A DNA stretch of 64,000 nt, from the NCBI GenBank assembly GCA_036264085.1, contig DATARR010000012.1, positions 34,260 through 98,259 of the forward strand, written 5' to 3'. Shown here piece after piece: positions 7,015 through 61,202 of the stretch. The stretch's first letter is position 1; every line of letters begins with the position of its first letter. Source of the DNA: Thermoanaerobaculia bacterium. GTDB taxonomy: Bacteria > Acidobacteriota > Thermoanaerobaculia > Multivoradales > UBA5704. A program made the position numbers and the translations under genes. Below the pieces are notes generated by a model. That model did not search any database and was not told the origin of the DNA. It worked only from the letters and a program-made list of their open reading frames with translations.

Positions 7015-7203
7015 CTACCCGGTGACGACCGGCCAGGTCTCCGGACAGACGAAGCAGAGGCTCTGGCAGGTGCGATCCATGGAGCCGCCGCCCCCGATCT
7101 CCCTCTGCTGGGCCAGCCCCGCCGCAGCCCCCTTCAGGGTGGAGCCGTCGAGCAGGCGGAGGGTCTCTCGGGAGAGGGTCATCTTGCGGATTTTCTTGTG
7201 CAT
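7015..7203 (-). CDS. Small Cys-containing peptide with double-glycine-type leader (putative bacteriocin/RiPP precursor, copy P1)
   Basis: MHKKIRKMTLSRETLRLLDGSTLKGAAAG...IGGGG then MDRTCQSLCFVCPETWPVVTG. AAGGAG RBS 8 nt upstream. The leader is shared with the peptides at 39579 and 61008. Confidence 0.55.
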   Translation of the reverse strand: MHKKIRKMTLSRETLRLLDGSTLKGAAAGLAQQREIGGGGSMDRTCQSLCFVCPETWPVVTG

Positions 7204-7438
7204 GGGAAGTCTCCTTTGGCGTGCGCCAGAGTTGGCGTGACGCCCAAGCTTACCAAAGGTTCGCCGCCCCGTTGCGAAAGGTGGCTCGTGGCGGTAGGAT
7301 CCTCACTGGCTGAAGGGGCAGCCGCCAGTCCGCGGGAAGGGCCGAGCCCACCTCCGGTGACATCGATTCCGTGCGTCGTCACCTTCTTTCTGCCGAGGAG
7401 CAGCGGACGAATCGGCGCTTGCGAAAGGAGGTGGCTCC

Positions 7439-31370: not shown

Positions 31371-31750
31371 GCGGTCGCTATGCCATCGCGGAACCTCGCC
31401 CGCGGAACCTCGCCCGAGACGATCGAGCAGGAGACCGTGTCAACTCCGGCCGCAGCCTGGGGCTTCTTGAGGCCCAACGGGCCGCCCTCCCTCAGCCCGG
31501 GGCAACGCCCTGGGTCTCAGGGAGATCGGAAATCATCGATGCGGCCTGAAGGGCCGCGCTAAGCTGCGCCGCCGAGGCGCGGTCATGGCATCGCGGAAAC
31601 CGCCCGAGACAATCGCGCAGGGGATCGTGTCGGCTCCGGCCCCGACCTGAAGGATTCCTGAGGCCCAACGGGCGCCCTCCCTCAGCCCGGGGCAACGCCT
31701 GGGTCTCAGGGAGATCGGAAATCATCGATGCGGCCTAAAGGGCCGCGCTA
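31371..31750. repeat. Tandem direct duplication of a ~180-190-bp unit at the left edge of the low-GC island
   Basis: Copy 1 is 31371..31561 and copy 2 is 31577..31750. The last ~90 bp of each is nearly identical (ggcccaacggg(c)cgccctccctcagcccggggcaacgcc(c)tgggtctcagggagatcggaaatcatcgatgcggcct(g/a)aagggccgcgcta). Confidence 0.85.
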
Positions 31751-31803
31751 CGCCTTAGGGAGCCGGCTTGATCCACCGGCTCAATCCAACATACACTTCC
31801 CAC

Positions 31804-32043
31804 ATGAAGGCCGTACAGATTATGTTTGACGAAGATCTCCTCGCCGAATTGGATGAGACCGCCGACGTTCGTGAAAAGGGGCGGTCCGCGGTGCTGCGGC
31901 AACTCACCAGCGACTTCCTGCGCCAACGTCGCGAACGTGAGATCGATGCTCAGTACGAGCGCGCCAATGCGGGGGGCGAGGAGCCGCTCGGAAAGGACTT
32001 CGAGGGGTGGGAAGAAGTGCTGATGCTCTCTCGACAAACCTGA
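31804..32043 (+). CDS. Ribbon-helix-helix (CopG-family) protein, orphan antitoxin-like
   Basis: From the ATG at 31804: MKAVQIMFDEDLLAELDETADVREKGRSAVLRQLTSDFLRQ is a typical RHH beta-alpha-alpha region, with an acidic tail (GEEPLGKDFEGWEE). No intact toxin ORF in the following 170 nt. Confidence 0.65.
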   Translation: MKAVQIMFDEDLLAELDETADVREKGRSAVLRQLTSDFLRQRREREIDAQYERANAGGEEPLGKDFEGWEEVLMLSRQT

Positions 32044-32213
32044 GCGAAGGCGGCTCGGCAGCCCAACTTGCCGTAGCCAAGCATCTCGTTGGATTCCAGC
32101 GTGTCGAGATCGGCCAGGAACTGCAATTGCGGGCGGGTCTCGCATCATCCTCGGGAATCCCCGTAGGACCGAGCGAGGACCACATTTGCGGCTTTCGATA
32201 AGAGTTCCCTGGG

Positions 32214-34211
32214 TCAAATTAGCAGATTTGTCTGCTCAACATCCCTGACAGGCAAACGGACCCTCGCTCCATGCTCAATTGGGTGGACAAGGGTATGTCG
32301 GCGAACATCATCGAGTACTCCTGGTTTCGCGATACGCTTCAGGAGCCAACGGCCAGCCCACCAATTGATAAGATTCTGGCTGGACTGGTTGGGCGCCTTT
32401 AAGCTAAACAGATACTTTGGTCTGGATTCCTGTCCTAGGAGGTACTCTTTTAAATTTGACACCAGGTTCACTCCAAACATCGCCTTTTGTTGACCATGCC
32501 TTAGGAGGGCCTCCTCGTTAAAACCAAGAGCGGCTAGCCCATCTCGCAAAGCTCTCATTTTGGGATTGGCCCCCTCACCGAATATGTAGTTTACCCTCTG
32601 CCCATTCCGTGTAGACTTTAGAAAGCCGGTGATCGCTCTCATCGTCTCTTGGCTGAACTGGTATGTCCCCCAACCCACGGTGTTGTCGATGTATCGATAT
32701 TTAATGGGCTGCCCCAATTTTCCCCCAAGAGTCTGAGCAGGAATAGAAATACTACTGTATTGGCATGGTAACTCGCCGTACAAACTCGTTGTGCCGACAA
32801 AGACGAGATCAGCTGGCCTGACTATTGGACGCCCTGCCATTGATGATGCAATTACGCTCGGCGAATCGCAATATCGCGCCCGATTTGCCAAAATCGCCTC
32901 AGGACTTACTGCGAGCATAGCCACTAATTTGCCCACCACCAATGGATTATACGGGGGAATAGCGCCGCAAACTGTCAGATCAGCGATAGCAGTGCCAACG
33001 CGAACCGCTTTTGCTAGACGGACAAGGTCAGCTATAGCCTTTTTACCATCTGGGGCCGCGACTAATCTGCGGATGGCTTCCCGGTTTGCTCCCCCTCCAA
33101 GAAAGCTTCGAACGATTTTTCTTGCCCAGAGGAGGTTGGCGAGTTCCACCGCTCTCTTGCTGCGGAAGAGTGGAGTCATAGATTGTTTCACCCAATAGTC
33201 TGTAGTCAACGGGGATCTCTCGACAGCCTTATGGTCCTCTGGGTCCGTTACTCGGTGATGCTGAGTTCTTCGCTTACTAGCCTCCTCCCGAAGAGTTGCA
33301 ATGACGGCCTCTGTGGGATTCTCTAGGACCTTTGGAGTTATGAGTTCGTCTTCAATAAAGTCGACCTTGTAGATCTCTCCGAGCCTGTTCTCTATGACAG
33401 ATTCCAGCCAAGCATTGGTCCGCGTGGGTGAAATGTTCGGAAATTCTTGCAGAACCTTCTCAGCTTCCCAGCCTATGAAATCGTCTCTGTTACGTAACTT
33501 CACAGCGGAACTGCTAAGGCACCCAATCCCCATCACGGTATGCAAGGGTGTGGCGGCATCTCGAAGAAGAAAGGTCATCGAGCGGCCGGGTACGCTCTGA
33601 TAGGGATTCGTCCAGGTAAGTCGAAAGTATCTCCATATGTCTGAGAGAGGGATTCCTGTATACTCGCAAGTCGTGTCGCTCTCAACAAACTGAAGGTATG
33701 GTTTGATTACATCTTCAGCTTGAATCCGGCCAGACTGGACGCCCATCAAGGAATCTGCCAATTCTCGACCATCCCGCATCAGAGAAAAAATAGACACACG
33801 TCTTCCCTCAAACCAATGTGGTCTTTCCATTTTGCGAACAAATGATTGAACCGCAAGAGTGCGCAGTTGCTCTGTCCGCTGAGCGACGAGTTGAAGCCTT
33901 CTCAACTCTCTCTCGCCCATTCTAGTCTTGGCCGCCGTGGTGGCTTGGGATTCGAAGTTCCATCCTTGACGCAGGAGATCGGCTACAACATTCACAATCG
34001 CAACGCGTTTCAGGATTGCCTCTCGGGCGCTTTTGTTCGTCCGGCGGACATAAGCACGGCGTAAGCGCTCGATCTCGTCGTTCCACTCTGCAGAGCCGGG
34101 TGGTGCATTTGTTTTGGTCAGAACCTCGTAAAACTCCAATACCACTTCATGAGCGAGTTGATCGCTGTCGGAGTATTCAATTCCAATTGAAGAGAGGAAA
34201 TCCTTATCCAT
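32214..34211 (-). CDS. DUF4338/DruA-like protein (last gene of island operon)
   Basis: 665 aa, about 50% GC. DIWRYFRLTWTNPYQSVPGRSMTFLLRDAATPLHTVMGIGCLSSSAVKLRNRDDFIGW, CGAIPPYNPLVVGKLVAMLAVSP and LVFVGTTSLYG...TVGWGTYQFS parallel the DUF4338 pattern I recall (GSAAW..ARD.FIGW ... ETFVD..F.GT.Y.AANW..G.T.G). GAGGTG RBS. Starts 9 nt after the upstream gene. Confidence 0.7.
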   Translation of the reverse strand: MDKDFLSSIGIEYSDSDQLAHEVVLEFYEVLTKTNAPPGSAEWNDEIERLRRAYVRRTNKSAREAILKRVAIVNVVADLLRQGWNFESQATTAAKTRMGERELRRLQLVAQRTEQLRTLAVQSFVRKMERPHWFEGRRVSIFSLMRDGRELADSLMGVQSGRIQAEDVIKPYLQFVESDTTCEYTGIPLSDIWRYFRLTWTNPYQSVPGRSMTFLLRDAATPLHTVMGIGCLSSSAVKLRNRDDFIGWEAEKVLQEFPNISPTRTNAWLESVIENRLGEIYKVDFIEDELITPKVLENPTEAVIATLREEASKRRTQHHRVTDPEDHKAVERSPLTTDYWVKQSMTPLFRSKRAVELANLLWARKIVRSFLGGGANREAIRRLVAAPDGKKAIADLVRLAKAVRVGTAIADLTVCGAIPPYNPLVVGKLVAMLAVSPEAILANRARYCDSPSVIASSMAGRPIVRPADLVFVGTTSLYGELPCQYSSISIPAQTLGGKLGQPIKYRYIDNTVGWGTYQFSQETMRAITGFLKSTRNGQRVNYIFGEGANPKMRALRDGLAALGFNEEALLRHGQQKAMFGVNLVSNLKEYLLGQESRPKYLFSLKAPNQSSQNLINWWAGRWLLKRIAKPGVLDDVRRHTLVHPIEHGARVRLPVRDVEQTNLLI

Positions 34212-34220
34212 GTAGCACCT

Positions 34221-35945
34221 CTAGGGCTTTAATAGAACGTCAAGAACTTCGCTCCACTCGCGGCGAAAGTTCGCGATCACCTTGCGCTCGGCGGCTGAGG
34301 TGGCTGCAATCTCTGCCCGAACTGCTGACAGGAGAAGGAGTTGCATTGCAAGGAGAGTTTCCTCCGGCTTGCGGGAATCACCCTCTAGTAGAGGTCTGTA
34401 AACCTGCTTATAGAATCGGTGCTTCGGGTTGACTACGAGTGTGATACGACCATCATCAAATATTGGAAAAATGAAAGATGATTCTCCGAGATCATCCTCA
34501 ACGATCCTATAATCCCGGTTTCCCGCTGTGGGTGAGGTTTCGCGTAATGAGGCATGACGTCGACGGAGCCGTTGCGCCATCTGTTGGTGCTCCTCAGGTA
34601 AGGCTCTATGGCGTATTTCCCGGAGGTGATGATCCTTCCCCGCGGCCAAAGTTTCTGCAGATCTCGCTTGTACTCTTGTTTTAAGGGCGAGGTGAGTCTG
34701 CCTCACGCGCGCGTTCAGCGCGCGAGCCATGTCTCCCATGTCGGGCGAGAGCACCTCGATTAGGGACTCTTGAGGTCTGACTTGTTGTTTGGTGTGCGTG
34801 ATGCCAAAGAGTTCGTCTAGCTCTGGCTCGAACCTGATTTCCGCACGCCACCAATCATCATAATTCTCGCGTCGTTTATCAGCTAAAAAGAACCAACCAT
34901 AATCTATTTCGCGACCACCTCGGACTATGGATACGCCTGCGCCATTAGTAATGCCTAATCTGCGCTTCTCATCATTGGGAAGAGAGTGCCAATCCTCGAT
35001 CGGCAGTTCAGAAAAAGTAACAGTAACTATTCCAGTGCTTGCCTTGGCAGAAGGCACCGGTGCTCGCACTTCATATTCTAGGGGTTCTGCGAATACTTCC
35101 CCTCCGGCGGTCACTGAAGGTTGGCGAACATACAGTGGGTCGACAGGAATAATTTGGTCGCCGTTTACATCTATCTCGACTCCATCCCAGAGAAAATAGC
35201 GAAAGACACGGCCAAGGGCCAGTTTGAGCTTCTGCTCGAGGGTAGAGATACGGCGGTTCTCTAGGCGATCACATTGGCTCCAGACGACGAGCGTTCCGGA
35301 AGAGGTCTCCGTCGTCTGAGCCCAGAGAGGCAAGCGAGTTCGCCGAGGAGAAGGTACCCTAGAAGTTTCCCCAGAGACAATTTCTTCCAGATCTAGGTAA
35401 GTGAACAGAGTCTTCCCTGGCTCCAACCATGAGTAGACTTCAACACGCCGAGCTTGACTTAGGGAGGCATTGGGTAGTCCCATGCCATAACGACCCAGGC
35501 CCGAACGGTCATCAAAGCGGCTACTCCCGCCAAAGCGAAGCGACTGCCTTAGCGTATGAGCGTCCATCCCGTGGCCATTGTCTAGAACCGCGATGACAAT
35601 AGAGTGCTCGGTCTCTTCATCGCTGCGTCGGATGAAAATGGAGATGGTCCGTGCTAGTGCTTGAAGGGAGTTGTCTACCAATTCGCTAATAGCGCTCACA
35701 GTACCTTTGTAGCCGGAATCCCGAGTCGCCTGGATGAATTTGTCCAGGGCAATGACCGAGTACTCGCCCGTTGGTTTCACCTTGTGCCCCTCGCCTTCCT
35801 CAGAAAAAGGATGCGTCGGGTGCCCTGAACCGGCGTCCATGTCTGTTGGGTCGGAGAACCGGACCACCTCTCCCCCGAACTCGGTTAGGCCCGACTGCGG
35901 CAGAAGTATACCGAATGGCGTATCCATGAGAAGCCCCCCATGCAT
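34221..35945 (-). CDS. MORC-like GHKL ATPase (HATPase_c_3 type), paralog 2
   Basis: N-box AISELVDNSLQA, G1 VLDNGHGM, G2 GRYGMGLPNAS. Downstream DELFGITHTKQQV and NPKHRFYKQVYRP are shared with the upstream paralog. Confidence 0.85.
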   Translation of the reverse strand: MHGGLLMDTPFGILLPQSGLTEFGGEVVRFSDPTDMDAGSGHPTHPFSEEGEGHKVKPTGEYSVIALDKFIQATRDSGYKGTVSAISELVDNSLQALARTISIFIRRSDEETEHSIVIAVLDNGHGMDAHTLRQSLRFGGSSRFDDRSGLGRYGMGLPNASLSQARRVEVYSWLEPGKTLFTYLDLEEIVSGETSRVPSPRRTRLPLWAQTTETSSGTLVVWSQCDRLENRRISTLEQKLKLALGRVFRYFLWDGVEIDVNGDQIIPVDPLYVRQPSVTAGGEVFAEPLEYEVRAPVPSAKASTGIVTVTFSELPIEDWHSLPNDEKRRLGITNGAGVSIVRGGREIDYGWFFLADKRRENYDDWWRAEIRFEPELDELFGITHTKQQVRPQESLIEVLSPDMGDMARALNARVRQTHLALKTRVQARSAETLAAGKDHHLREIRHRALPEEHQQMAQRLRRRHASLRETSPTAGNRDYRIVEDDLGESSFIFPIFDDGRITLVVNPKHRFYKQVYRPLLEGDSRKPEETLLAMQLLLLSAVRAEIAATSAAERKVIANFRREWSEVLDVLLKP

Positions 35946-36084
35946 GCCCGTGGCTGTCGACTAGATCTTCGAGATAAGGCAAGATTCGCGCCAATCCTCC
36001 GCCCAGTAGGGGACTCTAGGGTCGCTAAGTTGGGTCGACCAGCCTAGAGTACCCTGGCCCCTACATCCCTAGCAGCGGGGTCTT

Positions 36085-37893
36085 CTAAGACTCGTCTGTA
36101 TACAGTGCCTCCGCCACGGCGTTGGCTTTGTCTGAGAGGGCTTGGTCGCTGACGAGTGCGTCCAAGGCATGGCGAAGGCGTTCGGACCACGACTGGCGAG
36201 CTGCTTTATAGAAAACTTCCGACGCGCCTTCTGCTTCGAGTTCGCCGTCGGCTAATACCAAAAGGAGCACCTCAAGGGCGGAGCGCACTTGAGGGTGGGG
36301 TTCGTATACCTTTTGATAAAAGGGATGATTCGTGTTTAGTACTACTCGCTTCTGCTCGCCAAGGCGCAGTGGACTGAAGAAAGGGCCTTCCTTAACTGCA
36401 TCGAACAAGATCCGCCAGCGGTGCTCCTTAGCCTCACCTTCCAACTGCTTTAGAACTTCGTCAGCCTGCCGGCCTGTTGCGGCAGCAATCTGCTGTGCCT
36501 CATTCTGGAGATTCTTGCGGCCTTCCTCCCTCTTCCGGACCGATTGTTCTCTTTTCCGGAGTTTGAACTTTTCGGCTTCTTCCATCGCCTGCTCGCTGGC
36601 CTTACGACCATCAATCGCTTTTGCTTCGCTGCGGACTGCTTCATCCTTCTCGATTAGCCGGTCGCGGGCGGCGCGGAGATCTTTGACGAGTTGTATTAGC
36701 GCTCCTCCTCCCTTGCCGTTGTGTAGTAGCTTTTCCCACATTGATTCTGCGATCGTTATCTGCTGCTTCGCGGTGGTAATTCCGAAGAATTCGTCGAGCG
36801 AAGCATCGAAGTCGATCTCCACTTTAATGTTGGCGTCGTAGGTTTGGAACTTGGTCCAGCGAGGTGGAACGGAGTCGATCTGGCGACCTTCCCGGCAGAT
36901 TAGAAGAGCGTTATACTCTCGCATAATTGGCCAGCGGCTGTTTGTGTTACTGCTGTCGGTGCGAAGTGGATCGACTCGCTGGAAAGTCGGCGGTAACAGT
37001 GAAGCCCGAATTCTTACGGCACCCACTCGGCCCTCTGCTGTAGAGACGTCGAACGTACGGGCCTCGAAGCGAATGGCGCGGTCGGACGTCTCGTCGAAAA
37101 GGCGGCCATGCTCCATGAGGAAGAGTGGATCTACAACCTGTGTCGGCGCACGGTCGACGAAGATACTTCTTTCGGGCATCCAGTGTCGATAGATTACCCC
37201 TAAATGTTGGTGAAGTTTGGTGGTGATCGACTTTCTGGTAACCCAACCTGGGAGCCTCTTCAGGCGATCGAGGTCCTCCAATACGATCACTGTTCCAGAA
37301 TCGATAGAGTGAAGGTCAATCGTCTCTGTTCCTTCTAAAATCCAGCGAGGGAGGGATTTCTTCTGAGGAGTCAATAGCTTCTCGATTTTCTCGGCACTAT
37401 CCGCAGAGCCTGCAATTTTGGAGATGTCTACTGAAACTGCGTGCCAGTTGCTGCCAGCGATTTTTGAGTATACCGTATAGCGGCATGCAAGGCTGACGGC
37501 TGACGTGGGAAGACCATATCCGTACCGACCGAACCCAGACCTGTCGTCTTCCCGGTCAGTGCCGCCCCATCGAACGGCGTAGCCAATCATGTCCGGAATC
37601 ATTCCGTTTCCGTCATCGACGATAGCGATCTGGTTGGGCTTACTTTCGGTGGTATTAGCTTCTTTGAATCCATAGCATATTTCAACGGTCGTCGCCGACG
37701 CTTGCATAGCATTGTCGACCAATTCGGCGATTGCCCAGGCGGGATTCTTATAGCCAATGTCGCGCATTCCTCGAAGGAACGCGTCGGCGAATACAATCCC
37801 CGCCCCGGGGGCCCTTCTCTTCATTGTCTCGACATAGTTCTTTTGGCGCTGCGTTGTATCCATAATAGTGGTGGACTCATGTGGGTTAGGCAT
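36085..37893 (-). CDS. MORC-like GHKL ATPase (HATPase_c_3 type), paralog 1
   Basis: N-box AIAELVDNAMQA, G1 IVDDGNGM, G2 GRYGYGLPTS, then DEFFGITTAKQQI, a charged coiled-coil-like stretch (KASEQAMEEAEKFKLRKREQSVRKREEGRKNLQNEAQQ) and NTNHPFYQKVYEP. RBS GAAAGGAAAG. Confidence 0.85.
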   Translation of the reverse strand: MPNPHESTTIMDTTQRQKNYVETMKRRAPGAGIVFADAFLRGMRDIGYKNPAWAIAELVDNAMQASATTVEICYGFKEANTTESKPNQIAIVDDGNGMIPDMIGYAVRWGGTDREDDRSGFGRYGYGLPTSAVSLACRYTVYSKIAGSNWHAVSVDISKIAGSADSAEKIEKLLTPQKKSLPRWILEGTETIDLHSIDSGTVIVLEDLDRLKRLPGWVTRKSITTKLHQHLGVIYRHWMPERSIFVDRAPTQVVDPLFLMEHGRLFDETSDRAIRFEARTFDVSTAEGRVGAVRIRASLLPPTFQRVDPLRTDSSNTNSRWPIMREYNALLICREGRQIDSVPPRWTKFQTYDANIKVEIDFDASLDEFFGITTAKQQITIAESMWEKLLHNGKGGGALIQLVKDLRAARDRLIEKDEAVRSEAKAIDGRKASEQAMEEAEKFKLRKREQSVRKREEGRKNLQNEAQQIAAATGRQADEVLKQLEGEAKEHRWRILFDAVKEGPFFSPLRLGEQKRVVLNTNHPFYQKVYEPHPQVRSALEVLLLVLADGELEAEGASEVFYKAARQSWSERLRHALDALVSDQALSDKANAVAEALYTDES

Positions 37894-37908
37894 TCTGCTT
37901 TCCTTTCG

Positions 37909-60635: not shown

Positions 60636-60705
60636 ATTGAGACCCGGGCTCGCGAACCGCGGGGCCGGGCACCTCCCTTTTTGAACGACCATGGAGGATT
60701 CCGAC

Positions 60706-60963
60706 ATGCGCCACTCATCCGACAGTGCTTCATCCACTCCGCGCCGTGGCTCCCGCATCGTGCTGCTGGCCGTCCTCTGCGGCATCCTGGCCCTGGCCCA
60801 GCTTCTGCCAGCGGCGCCTCCCGCGCCCCGGCTCACCACCGGCGGCTGCACGAGCAGCTCCCAGTGCCTGCCCGGCCAGCTCTGCTGCCCGGCCTGCGGT
60901 CAGCCCGACTGTGGCAACCGCTGCTTCGTGGCTGTGAAGGGCCGTTGCCCGCTCTTCGTGTAA
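60706..60963 (+). CDS. Small secreted Cys-rich protein (8 Cys in about 38 aa)
   Basis: GGAGGA RBS 7 nt before the ATG at 60706. Signal-like RIVLLAVLCGILALAQLL. Mature part GGCTSSSQCLPGQLCCPACGQPDCGNRCFVAVKGRCPLFV. Confidence 0.55.
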   Translation: MRHSSDSASSTPRRGSRIVLLAVLCGILALAQLLPAAPPAPRLTTGGCTSSSQCLPGQLCCPACGQPDCGNRCFVAVKGRCPLFV

Positions 60964-61007
60964 ACGCCGCGGTCGTCGCTGCGCCGACGCCTTGAAAGGA
61001 GCCCCTG

Positions 61008-61202
61008 ATGAAGAAGAAGACGCTCAAGCTCATCCTCCACCGTGAGACCCTCGCCAACCTGTCCAACCACCAGATGGAAGCAGCGGTAGGAGGAGCGGCC
61101 ACGAACGACAAGTCCTGCCTGCTCTCCTGCTTCGCCGGCTGCAGCGCCGTCGGCTGCACCGATACGTGCCCGCGGACGATCGTGCGGACCTGCACCCGCT
61201 GA
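61008..61202 (+). CDS. Small Cys-rich peptide with double-glycine-type leader (putative bacteriocin/RiPP precursor, copy P3)
   Basis: MKKKTLKLILHRETLANLSNHQMEAAVGG then AATNDKSCLLSCFAGCSAVGCTDTCPRTIVRTCTR (7 Cys). AAGGAG RBS 7 nt upstream. Confidence 0.65.
   Translation: MKKKTLKLILHRETLANLSNHQMEAAVGGAATNDKSCLLSCFAGCSAVGCTDTCPRTIVRTCTR

Follow-up and report, generated by a model that had tools for sequence, protein, structure and literature searches.

The three small genes P1, P2, and P3 lie scattered through the stretch of Thermoanaerobaculia DNA analyzed here (the window: 64,000 nucleotides, G000:C62:34260-98259, from an assembly of 7.1 Mb in 185 contigs with ~70% GC). Each appears to encode a peptide with a double-glycine leader and a cysteine-rich core, and this raises the question of whether they specify RiPP precursors and, if so, which enzymes would mature them and from where.

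Three small genes and their surroundings

P1, P2, and P3 are intact open reading frames of 62 to 64 codons (Table 1), and in all three the AAGGAG lies 6 to 8 nt upstream of the ATG, in agreement with an earlier note on this DNA that had described small genes with AAGGAG-type ribosome-binding sites. The common leader proposed in the same note was recovered by a profile that we built from the copies in this genome, with E-values of 1e-11 (P1), 7e-12 (P2), and 1e-11 (P3) among ~102,000 six-frame pieces. Its cysteine counts of 3, 6, and 7 held for P1 and P2, whereas P3 has 6 rather than 7; Ser/Thr residues number 5, 7, and 9, respectively. The leader ends in AGG in P2 and in VGG in P3. In P1 it ends in AAAG and is followed by an 11-residue extension, itself ending in GGGG, before the core SMDRTCQSLCFVCPETWPVVTG with its 3 cysteines begins, and this extension makes the P1 cleavage site ambiguous between AAAG|L and GGGG|S. 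The C terminus of P3 reads ...RTCTR (codon at ~61200), with Arg in place of the terminal Cys found in five of eight orthologues (e.g., ...TCTC in G019).

Consensus promoter and terminator scans around P1, P2, and P3 returned nothing usable at 70% GC. A scan for -10-like hexamers found TAAGCT further upstream of the P1 Shine-Dalgarno sequence, and a similar element precedes P2. The hairpin downstream of P2 has a predicted folding energy of -42.2 kcal/mol (z -3.66), with none of 200 shuffled sequences equally stable, and is terminator-like, though without a U tract.

TABLE 1 Positions of P1, P2, and P3 and of their sequence elements within the window
Feature	Positions	Strand	Sequence or content	Basis
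P1	7015-7203	minus	62 aa, MHKKIRKMTLSRETLRLLDGSTLKGAAAGLAQQREIGGGGSMDRTCQSLCFVCPETWPVVTG	
P1 leader, residues 1-29	7117-7203	minus	MHKKIRKMTLSRETLRLLDGSTLKGAAAG	translation, own leader profile
P1 Shine-Dalgarno	7211-7216 (plus-strand positions, complement)	minus	AAGGAG	sequence
P2	39579-39767	plus	62 aa, MKKRLQKKLELSRETLRSLAEASLPEAAGGFSYPPTCPAQCGSDANTVCFATCACTSPAFCE	
P2 -10-like hexamer	39550-39555	plus	TAGAGT	sequence
P2 ribosome-binding site	39564-39569	plus	AAGGAG	sequence
P2 leader, residues 1-30	39579-39668	plus	MKKRLQKKLELSRETLRSLAEASLPEAAGG	NF038153 and own profile
P2 core with stop codon	39669-39767	plus	FSYPPTCPAQCGSDANTVCFATCACTSPAFCE, 6 Cys, 7 Ser/Thr	
P2 GC-rich hairpin	39784-39817	plus	14-bp stem, 17 nt past the P2 stop	
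P3	61008-61202	plus	64 aa, MKKKTLKLILHRETLANLSNHQMEAAVGGAATNDKSCLLSCFAGCSAVGCTDTCPRTIVRTCTR	
P3 Shine-Dalgarno	60996-61001	plus	AAGGAG	sequence
P3 leader, residues 1-29	61008-61094	plus	MKKKTLKLILHRETLANLSNHQMEAAVGG	NF038153, 31.8 bits
P3 core with stop codon	61095-61202	plus	AATNDKSCLLSCFAGCSAVGCTDTCPRTIVRTCTR, 6 Cys, 9 Ser/Thr	

There was no RiPP enzyme among the neighbors of P1, P2, and P3 in the window, and all LanB, LanC, Peptidase_C39, and SPASM matches of the genome fall outside contig C62, in agreement with the earlier note, which saw no maturation genes close by. P1 is located upstream of genes for a PTP-like phosphatase and pilin-like proteins on the same strand and is divergent from an ankyrin-repeat gene. 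P2 is flanked by a low-GC island on one side and by CoxS/L/M-like genes on the other. The island (window positions 31750-38660, 52-54% GC versus 70%) encodes an ECF-sized sigma factor, two GHKL (HATPase_c_3, MORC-like) ATPases, and a DruA-like protein of 665 aa. Between the island and P2, directly upstream of the latter, is a tandem array of ~23 copies of a 21-bp unit (38976-39458; unit GGCTCATTGGACGTGTCCCGC, palindromic core GGAC..GTCC). Tandem Repeats Finder (TRF) listed 250 arrays genome-wide, 111 of them with a period of 21, 42, 63, or 84, and the palindrome-containing units are of many kinds. Three of the precursors have an array within 200 bp, which probably reflects a shared intergenic location only.

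P3 has upstream of it a GCS2 gene and a 90-codon ORF for a Cys-rich secreted protein. The GCS2 gene was considered as a functional partner; its identity was confirmed, yet it is absent as a recurring neighbor at other family loci, and we therefore treat its adjacency to P3 as coincidental. The 90-codon ORF (60691-60963) ends 45 nt upstream of P3 and has a hydrophobic N terminus and a C-terminal part with 8 cysteines. Its linkage to P3 is kept in G019 and also in G006, where the two are found away from the conserved upstream gene, so that the two small genes may belong together. Downstream of P3 (61726-63987) are a 165-aa ORF and a gene for a 753-aa AAA_21/AAA_15 ATPase with a C-terminal DUF3696, possibly a defense-type ATPase.

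A local enzyme shared by all family members was also considered and rejected. When the ORFs lying up to 8 kb from each precursor were clustered, only common families recurred, namely histidine kinases/sigma-54 activators, Ser/Thr kinases, MacB-type ABC transporter parts, and HlyD. Compared with random genome positions, these neighbor families showed no convincing enrichment; the best was the MacB permease, with 5 observed versus 2.0 expected (P = 0.047, uncorrected, in five tests).

A dispersed family with one leader and many cores

The genome-derived leader profile (E < 1e-3) gave 62 matches, which comprise 61 full-length copies and one 20-codon fragment. The description of the family as dispersed and unlinked, made from three genes, proved to apply on a larger scale: the 61 copies occupy 46 loci on 34 contigs, as 37 singletons, 3 pairs, and 6 triplets, in a MAG with an estimated contamination of 6%. 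P1, P2, and P3 are the only copies within the window, and a fourth on the same contig (C62:16539-16709) lies ~18 kb before the window start. An SD-like site precedes 57 of the 61 copies. Furthermore, a -10-like TAnnnT hexamer is present 18-75 nt upstream of 22 of 50 first-in-locus genes, against 11.7 +/- 2.8 in shuffled sequences, and none of 500 shuffles reached the observed count.

The leader follows the consensus M-K-K-x-x-K-K-L-x-L-x-R-E-T-L-R-x-L-(4)-L-x-x-A-A-G-G, in which the L, L, E, T, L, and G positions are conserved at 91-100%. The motif LxLxKx5L with K/R is present in 54 copies, or in 60 of 61 if position 5 is relaxed, and the leader ends in GG in 34 copies and in GA in 18 (52/61 together). 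Leaders are free of cysteine (0 in 1793 residues). The cores average 31.7 aa and contain 16% Cys and 24% Ser/Thr, with Ser plus Thr equaling or exceeding Cys in 60 of the 61. An odd number of cysteines is found in 33/61 cores, so there is none of the even-number bias that disulfide pairing would need. Core sequences are diverse, with a median pairwise identity of 0.32 and values above 60% in just 13 of 1830 pairs; the ~61 copies carry ~50 different core types. Neither of the lipid II-binding motifs searched for (nisin SxxxCTP[GS]C and mersacidin-like TxS/TxEC) occurs in any of the 61 cores.

To place the leader among known families, we compared it with NCBIfam models, inspecting matches up to an E-value of 10. 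NF038153 (lant_leader_L1a, class I lanthipeptide; cutoff 22 bits) matched P3 at 31.8 bits and P2 marginally at 22.7 bits, and genome-wide it found 28 copies above threshold. P1 gave no match to this model at E-values up to 10; it carries MxLxRx5L and fits the genome-derived profile only. Nif11/NHLP models were absent from the NCBIfam matches over the same E-value range, and Pfam gave for P1, P2, and P3 only a subthreshold match to DUF5837. The earlier note was right to see a double-glycine RiPP leader, but its likening of the leader to TIGR04149 did not survive the profile search. TIGR04149 (GG_sam_targ_CFB) describes radical SAM-modified GG-leader peptides of Bacteroidetes, which likewise have a KKLxLxKETIxxL-like N-terminal leader and a GG end; P3, however, scored 16 bits against a cutoff of 25, P1 and P2 gave nothing, and no precursor locus has a radical SAM/SPASM partner. 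The three SPASM genes that the genome does contain are on contigs C134, C92, and C176, all without precursors, and a radical SAM route was therefore set aside. The best-supported leader family, as judged from these profile scores, is the class I lanthipeptide family NF038153 with its LxLxKx5L...GG pattern.

Class I LanAs of Bacteroidetes, including the pinensin-related group, have been reported to carry an LxLxKx5L...GG leader, and a C39 protease is often encoded close to those LanA clusters (Walker et al. 2020, PMC7268733). The Bacteroidetes LanAs share with the present family the leader motif, the GG end, and a core rich in Cys and Ser/Thr (PMC7268733). The differences are the host, here a member of the Acidobacteriota (Thermoanaerobaculia), and motif position 5, which is mostly Arg.

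In public data, P3 has 46 clusters of homologues (53-92% identity), nearly all of them full-length, and several of their NCBI records bear the name "class I lanthipeptide". The gene family is thus already catalogued, and P1, P2, and P3 are new members of it. Some homologues are labeled "predicted metal-binding protein" by JGI, and a few P3 homologues (P0015, P0016, and P0023) carry a precomputed match to Pfam PF28317.1.

Orthologues in other species of the genus were found for P1 in G015, for P2 in six genomes, and for P3 in eight. All cysteines in the conserved portion of each core are invariant, while the extreme C termini differ in length and in Cys. The conserved motif is TCQSxCxVCPETWPV in P1 (G015; core pN/pS 0.43) and (S/T)CPxxCGSxA..CxxTCxC in P2, whose core is identical in G019 despite two synonymous changes; the P3 orthologues have DKSCLLSCFAGCSAVGCTDTCP in common to all eight (pN/pS 0.43). 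Pooled pN/pS values were 0.30-0.59 for leaders and 0.43-0.70 for cores. This pattern of conservation indicates that P1, P2, and P3 are real genes.

Maturation genes elsewhere in the genome and in relatives

The earlier note had suggested that any maturation machinery would act in trans, and searches for PCAT, LanB, and LanC genes agree with this: the machinery is absent from C62 and present on other contigs, and the C5-type LanB and the C163-type PCAT covary with the precursors in relatives. Lant_dehydr_N occurs in two genes of the genome, a LanC domain in 16 ORFs, and Peptidase_C39 in three ABC transporters. Radical SAM/SPASM genes, which the note had named as another option, exist in the genome, as described above, although on none of the precursor-bearing contigs.

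The LanB gene on contig C5 (~16.0-19.4 kb) is stop-free, scores 573 bits against Lant_dehydr_N and 238 bits against Lant_dehydr_C, and is homologous to MibB (1e-56) and NisB (6e-29). The LanC gene beside it (C5:20333-21625, 147 bits) has intact zinc/catalytic motifs AHG, WCxG (WCYG), and CHG. There is no precursor at this locus, where LanC abuts the chorismate synthase gene (C5:20333-22000), leaving an empty slot. In G019 and G020, the orthologous locus has the order aroC, L1a-leader precursor, LanC, (MNT), LanB, with a single L1a-leader precursor directly upstream of LanC, and the LanB and LanC proteins are 93.7% and 92.7% identical to those of G000. This synteny suggests that the C5 LanB and LanC are the cognate enzymes of the NF038153-type leader. 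It also indicates that the C5 pair has lost its local substrate yet stays intact.

Four further class I-type LanC paralogues (two on C13, one each on C137 and C142) have 47-57% identity to the G019 LanC, and those on C13 and C137 directly adjoin family precursors. At these sites (C13:38030-41626 and C137:163537-170128) the LanC paralogues stand alone beside the precursors, with no LanB, and on C137 a 792-aa Pkinase-LanC fusion (class III/IV-like) is encoded 3 kb from the paralogue. Five other LanC-domain proteins of ~1100 aa are LanM-sized. Adjacency to such genes is the exception in the family, as only 5 of the 62 profile matches lie next to any LanC-domain gene (four beside stand-alone LanCs and one beside a LanM-sized gene on C7), none of these being the C5 pair, and 0/62 lie next to LanB.

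A PCAT-HlyD exporter is encoded at C163:14641-18862; the other two PCATs are on C84 and C137. The C163 PCAT is ~5 kb from a second LanB-type cluster, which has different precursors. In the second LanB (C163:5515-9973), the Lant_dehydr_C part precedes Lant_dehydr_N, and its own two precursors are Ser/Thr- and Cys-rich with an unrelated leader that lacks GG (MTQKPETKAKALNLEVDAVES... and ...KPKALELEVEELES...).

We compared the occurrence of these genes across 41 relatives, of which 25 have NF038153 matches. A high-scoring LanB type (>340 bits) was present in all 25 relatives with leaders and in 1 of the 16 without, although this phyletic correlation is not phylogenetically independent, and the four genus members from which all of this is absent might form one clade. 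In the genus itself, 20 of 25 genomes have 11-31 NF038153 matches each, an undercount given that NF038153 is a short model. An orthologue of the C163 PCAT, at 82-98% identity, is found in 19 of the 20 precursor-positive genus members, including four members without the second LanB type. It is missing from the four genus members without precursors (G004, G008, G009, and G010).

In G027, which belongs to another family of the same order, the leader occurs in canonical clusters with the orders HlyD-PCAT-(5-6 precursors)-LanB and HlyD-PCAT-precursor-LanC-LanB, and the C163 PCAT and HlyD are the best matches to the G027 proteins (55-57% and 41-42% identity). Among 80 public LanB loci from Thermoanaerobaculia, Holophagales, Myxococcota, Gemmatimonadota, Verrucomicrobiota, and Planctomycetota, 22 have an L1a-type leader within 10 kb, a proximity that within the genus is not rare by chance (~18%, at 60 copies per 7 Mb). 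Most close relatives of the C5 LanB, like C5 itself, have no such leader within 10 kb. In the closed, single-contig genomes G006 and G015, LanB, PCAT, and 17-29 precursors are scattered over one chromosome, and the dispersed layout is thus not an assembly or binning artifact. At the level of the class, leader matches occur in only 4 of 60 genera, and high copy number is confined to three of them: the genus studied here, one other in the same family, and one in a neighboring family.

Proposed pathway, alternatives, and significance

We consider it probable that P1, P2, and P3 are class I LanA genes whose products are matured in trans by the C5 LanB and LanC, possibly by the extra LanCs, and by the C163 PCAT-HlyD. 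For the chemistry we draw on what is established for NisB-type dehydratases, NisC-type cyclases, and C39 PCATs, while the modification itself and the pairing of enzymes with peptides, as well as the cleavage site and any biological activity, are predicted from sequence. Each precursor peptide would be translated from its own small gene, and the conserved leader would be recognized by the single class I dehydratase LanB encoded on C5. LanB would glutamylate Ser/Thr residues of the core by means of Glu-tRNA and then eliminate glutamate to give Dha/Dhb, to which the adjacent LanC would add the core Cys thiols, forming thioether rings. For some substrates, cyclization may be carried out instead by the LanC paralogues on C13, C137, and C142. 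Finally, the C39 ABC exporter with HlyD (C163) would cut after GG/GA and export the product. In this way one enzyme set would process dozens of dispersed precursors, much as ProcM processes the prochlorosins, but with class I chemistry.

Other explanations of the same genes have to be weighed against this pathway. It is possible that the peptides form disulfides only, or are unmodified bacteriocin-like or signaling peptides, which a PCAT cleaves at the double glycine and exports with no lanthionine being made. The GG/GA ends in 52/61 leaders, the three PCATs in the genome, the lack of adjoining enzymes at most copies, and the metal-binding labels from JGI would all fit such a scheme. Nevertheless, we regard it as quite unlikely, since the leader fits a lanthipeptide-specific model, cysteines are odd in number in 33/61 cores and matched or exceeded by Ser plus Thr in 60/61, LanB co-occurs strictly with the leaders, and relatives have the same leader inside their LanB/LanC clusters. 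That the ORFs are chance or decaying sequences with no function is very improbable indeed. Short ORFs in a 70% GC genome, rich as it is in spurious reading frames, invite that suspicion, but it does not sit well with SD sites at 57/61 copies, invariant cysteines and pN/pS below 1 across species, enriched upstream -10-like boxes, or the 46 clusters of P3 homologues from independent metagenomes.

Alternatively, the genes could encode RiPP precursors whose maturation depends not on the C5 pair but on LanM-sized proteins with a LanC domain, on the kinase-LanC fusion, or on an unrecognized or radical SAM enzyme. The genome offers candidates in its 16 LanC-domain ORFs, five of them LanM-sized, and in the Pkinase-LanC fusion; moreover, one copy is beside a LanM-sized gene on C7, four are beside stand-alone LanCs, and P3 has a weak match to TIGR04149. 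That match is below the cutoff, though, and the SPASM genes are on precursor-free contigs. As class I-type paralogues of the C5 LanC, the stand-alone LanCs would still require a dehydratase, and it is the LanB and PCAT whose phyletic profiles match those of the precursors. On balance, this explanation appears unlikely to us, and maturation by the C5 LanB and LanC with the C163 exporter is the reading that we retain.

Compared with known class I LanA systems, G000 has all of LanB, LanC, and a C39 PCAT, and clusters with the same leader are present in G027, G019, and G020; what differs is that the ~61 copies, at 46 loci, are separate from the one LanB/LanC locus, which has no precursor. The arrangement recalls the prochlorosins, class II lanthipeptides of Prochlorococcus/Synechococcus in which many dispersed ProcA genes are served by one promiscuous ProcM. 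Both systems have dozens of unlinked precursors with a conserved leader and diverse cores, and one or a few synthetases encoded elsewhere. However, the likeness is one of dispersed architecture only: G000 has separate LanB and LanC proteins rather than a fused LanM, the leader is of the LxLxKx5L type rather than Nif11/NHLP, and it covaries with LanB, not LanM. In addition, the G000 cores are diverse between paralogues but conserved between orthologues, unlike the strain-level hypervariability of prochlorosins.

We found no account of a dispersed class I system in Acidobacteriota or Thermoanaerobaculia in the literature searched, an absence that is not proof. The combination of ~60 dispersed class I precursors with a LanB/LanC locus devoid of substrate, an unlinked PCAT, and several accessory LanCs is, as far as we found, undescribed and unusual. 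The case that it amounts to a class I counterpart of the prochlorosins, in which one LanB and one PCAT-HlyD handle ~60 precursors, stand-alone LanC paralogues beside subsets of precursors provide alternative ring topologies, and each of ~50 core types is conserved between species, seems to us evenly poised. If it holds, the outcome would be a large, stable arsenal of distinct lanthipeptides from a decentralized gene set. For its hosts we propose a soil genus of Thermoanaerobaculia and a few neighboring genera, a proposal that might equally well prove right or wrong.

Mining tools for class I lanthipeptides scan the few genes around LanB/LanC for precursors. In the lineage of G000 they would report a LanB/LanC without substrate and miss ~60 substrates. 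If a single LanB/LanC set does handle many cores, peptide engineering would gain a class I enzyme pair that is promiscuous by nature. To our knowledge, one enzyme with many dispersed substrates has until now been a principle of the class II prochlorosins, and the present system, if true, would provide an independent second example. A further consequence would be that uncultured Acidobacteriota, abundant in soil, hold far more RiPP products than cluster counts imply.
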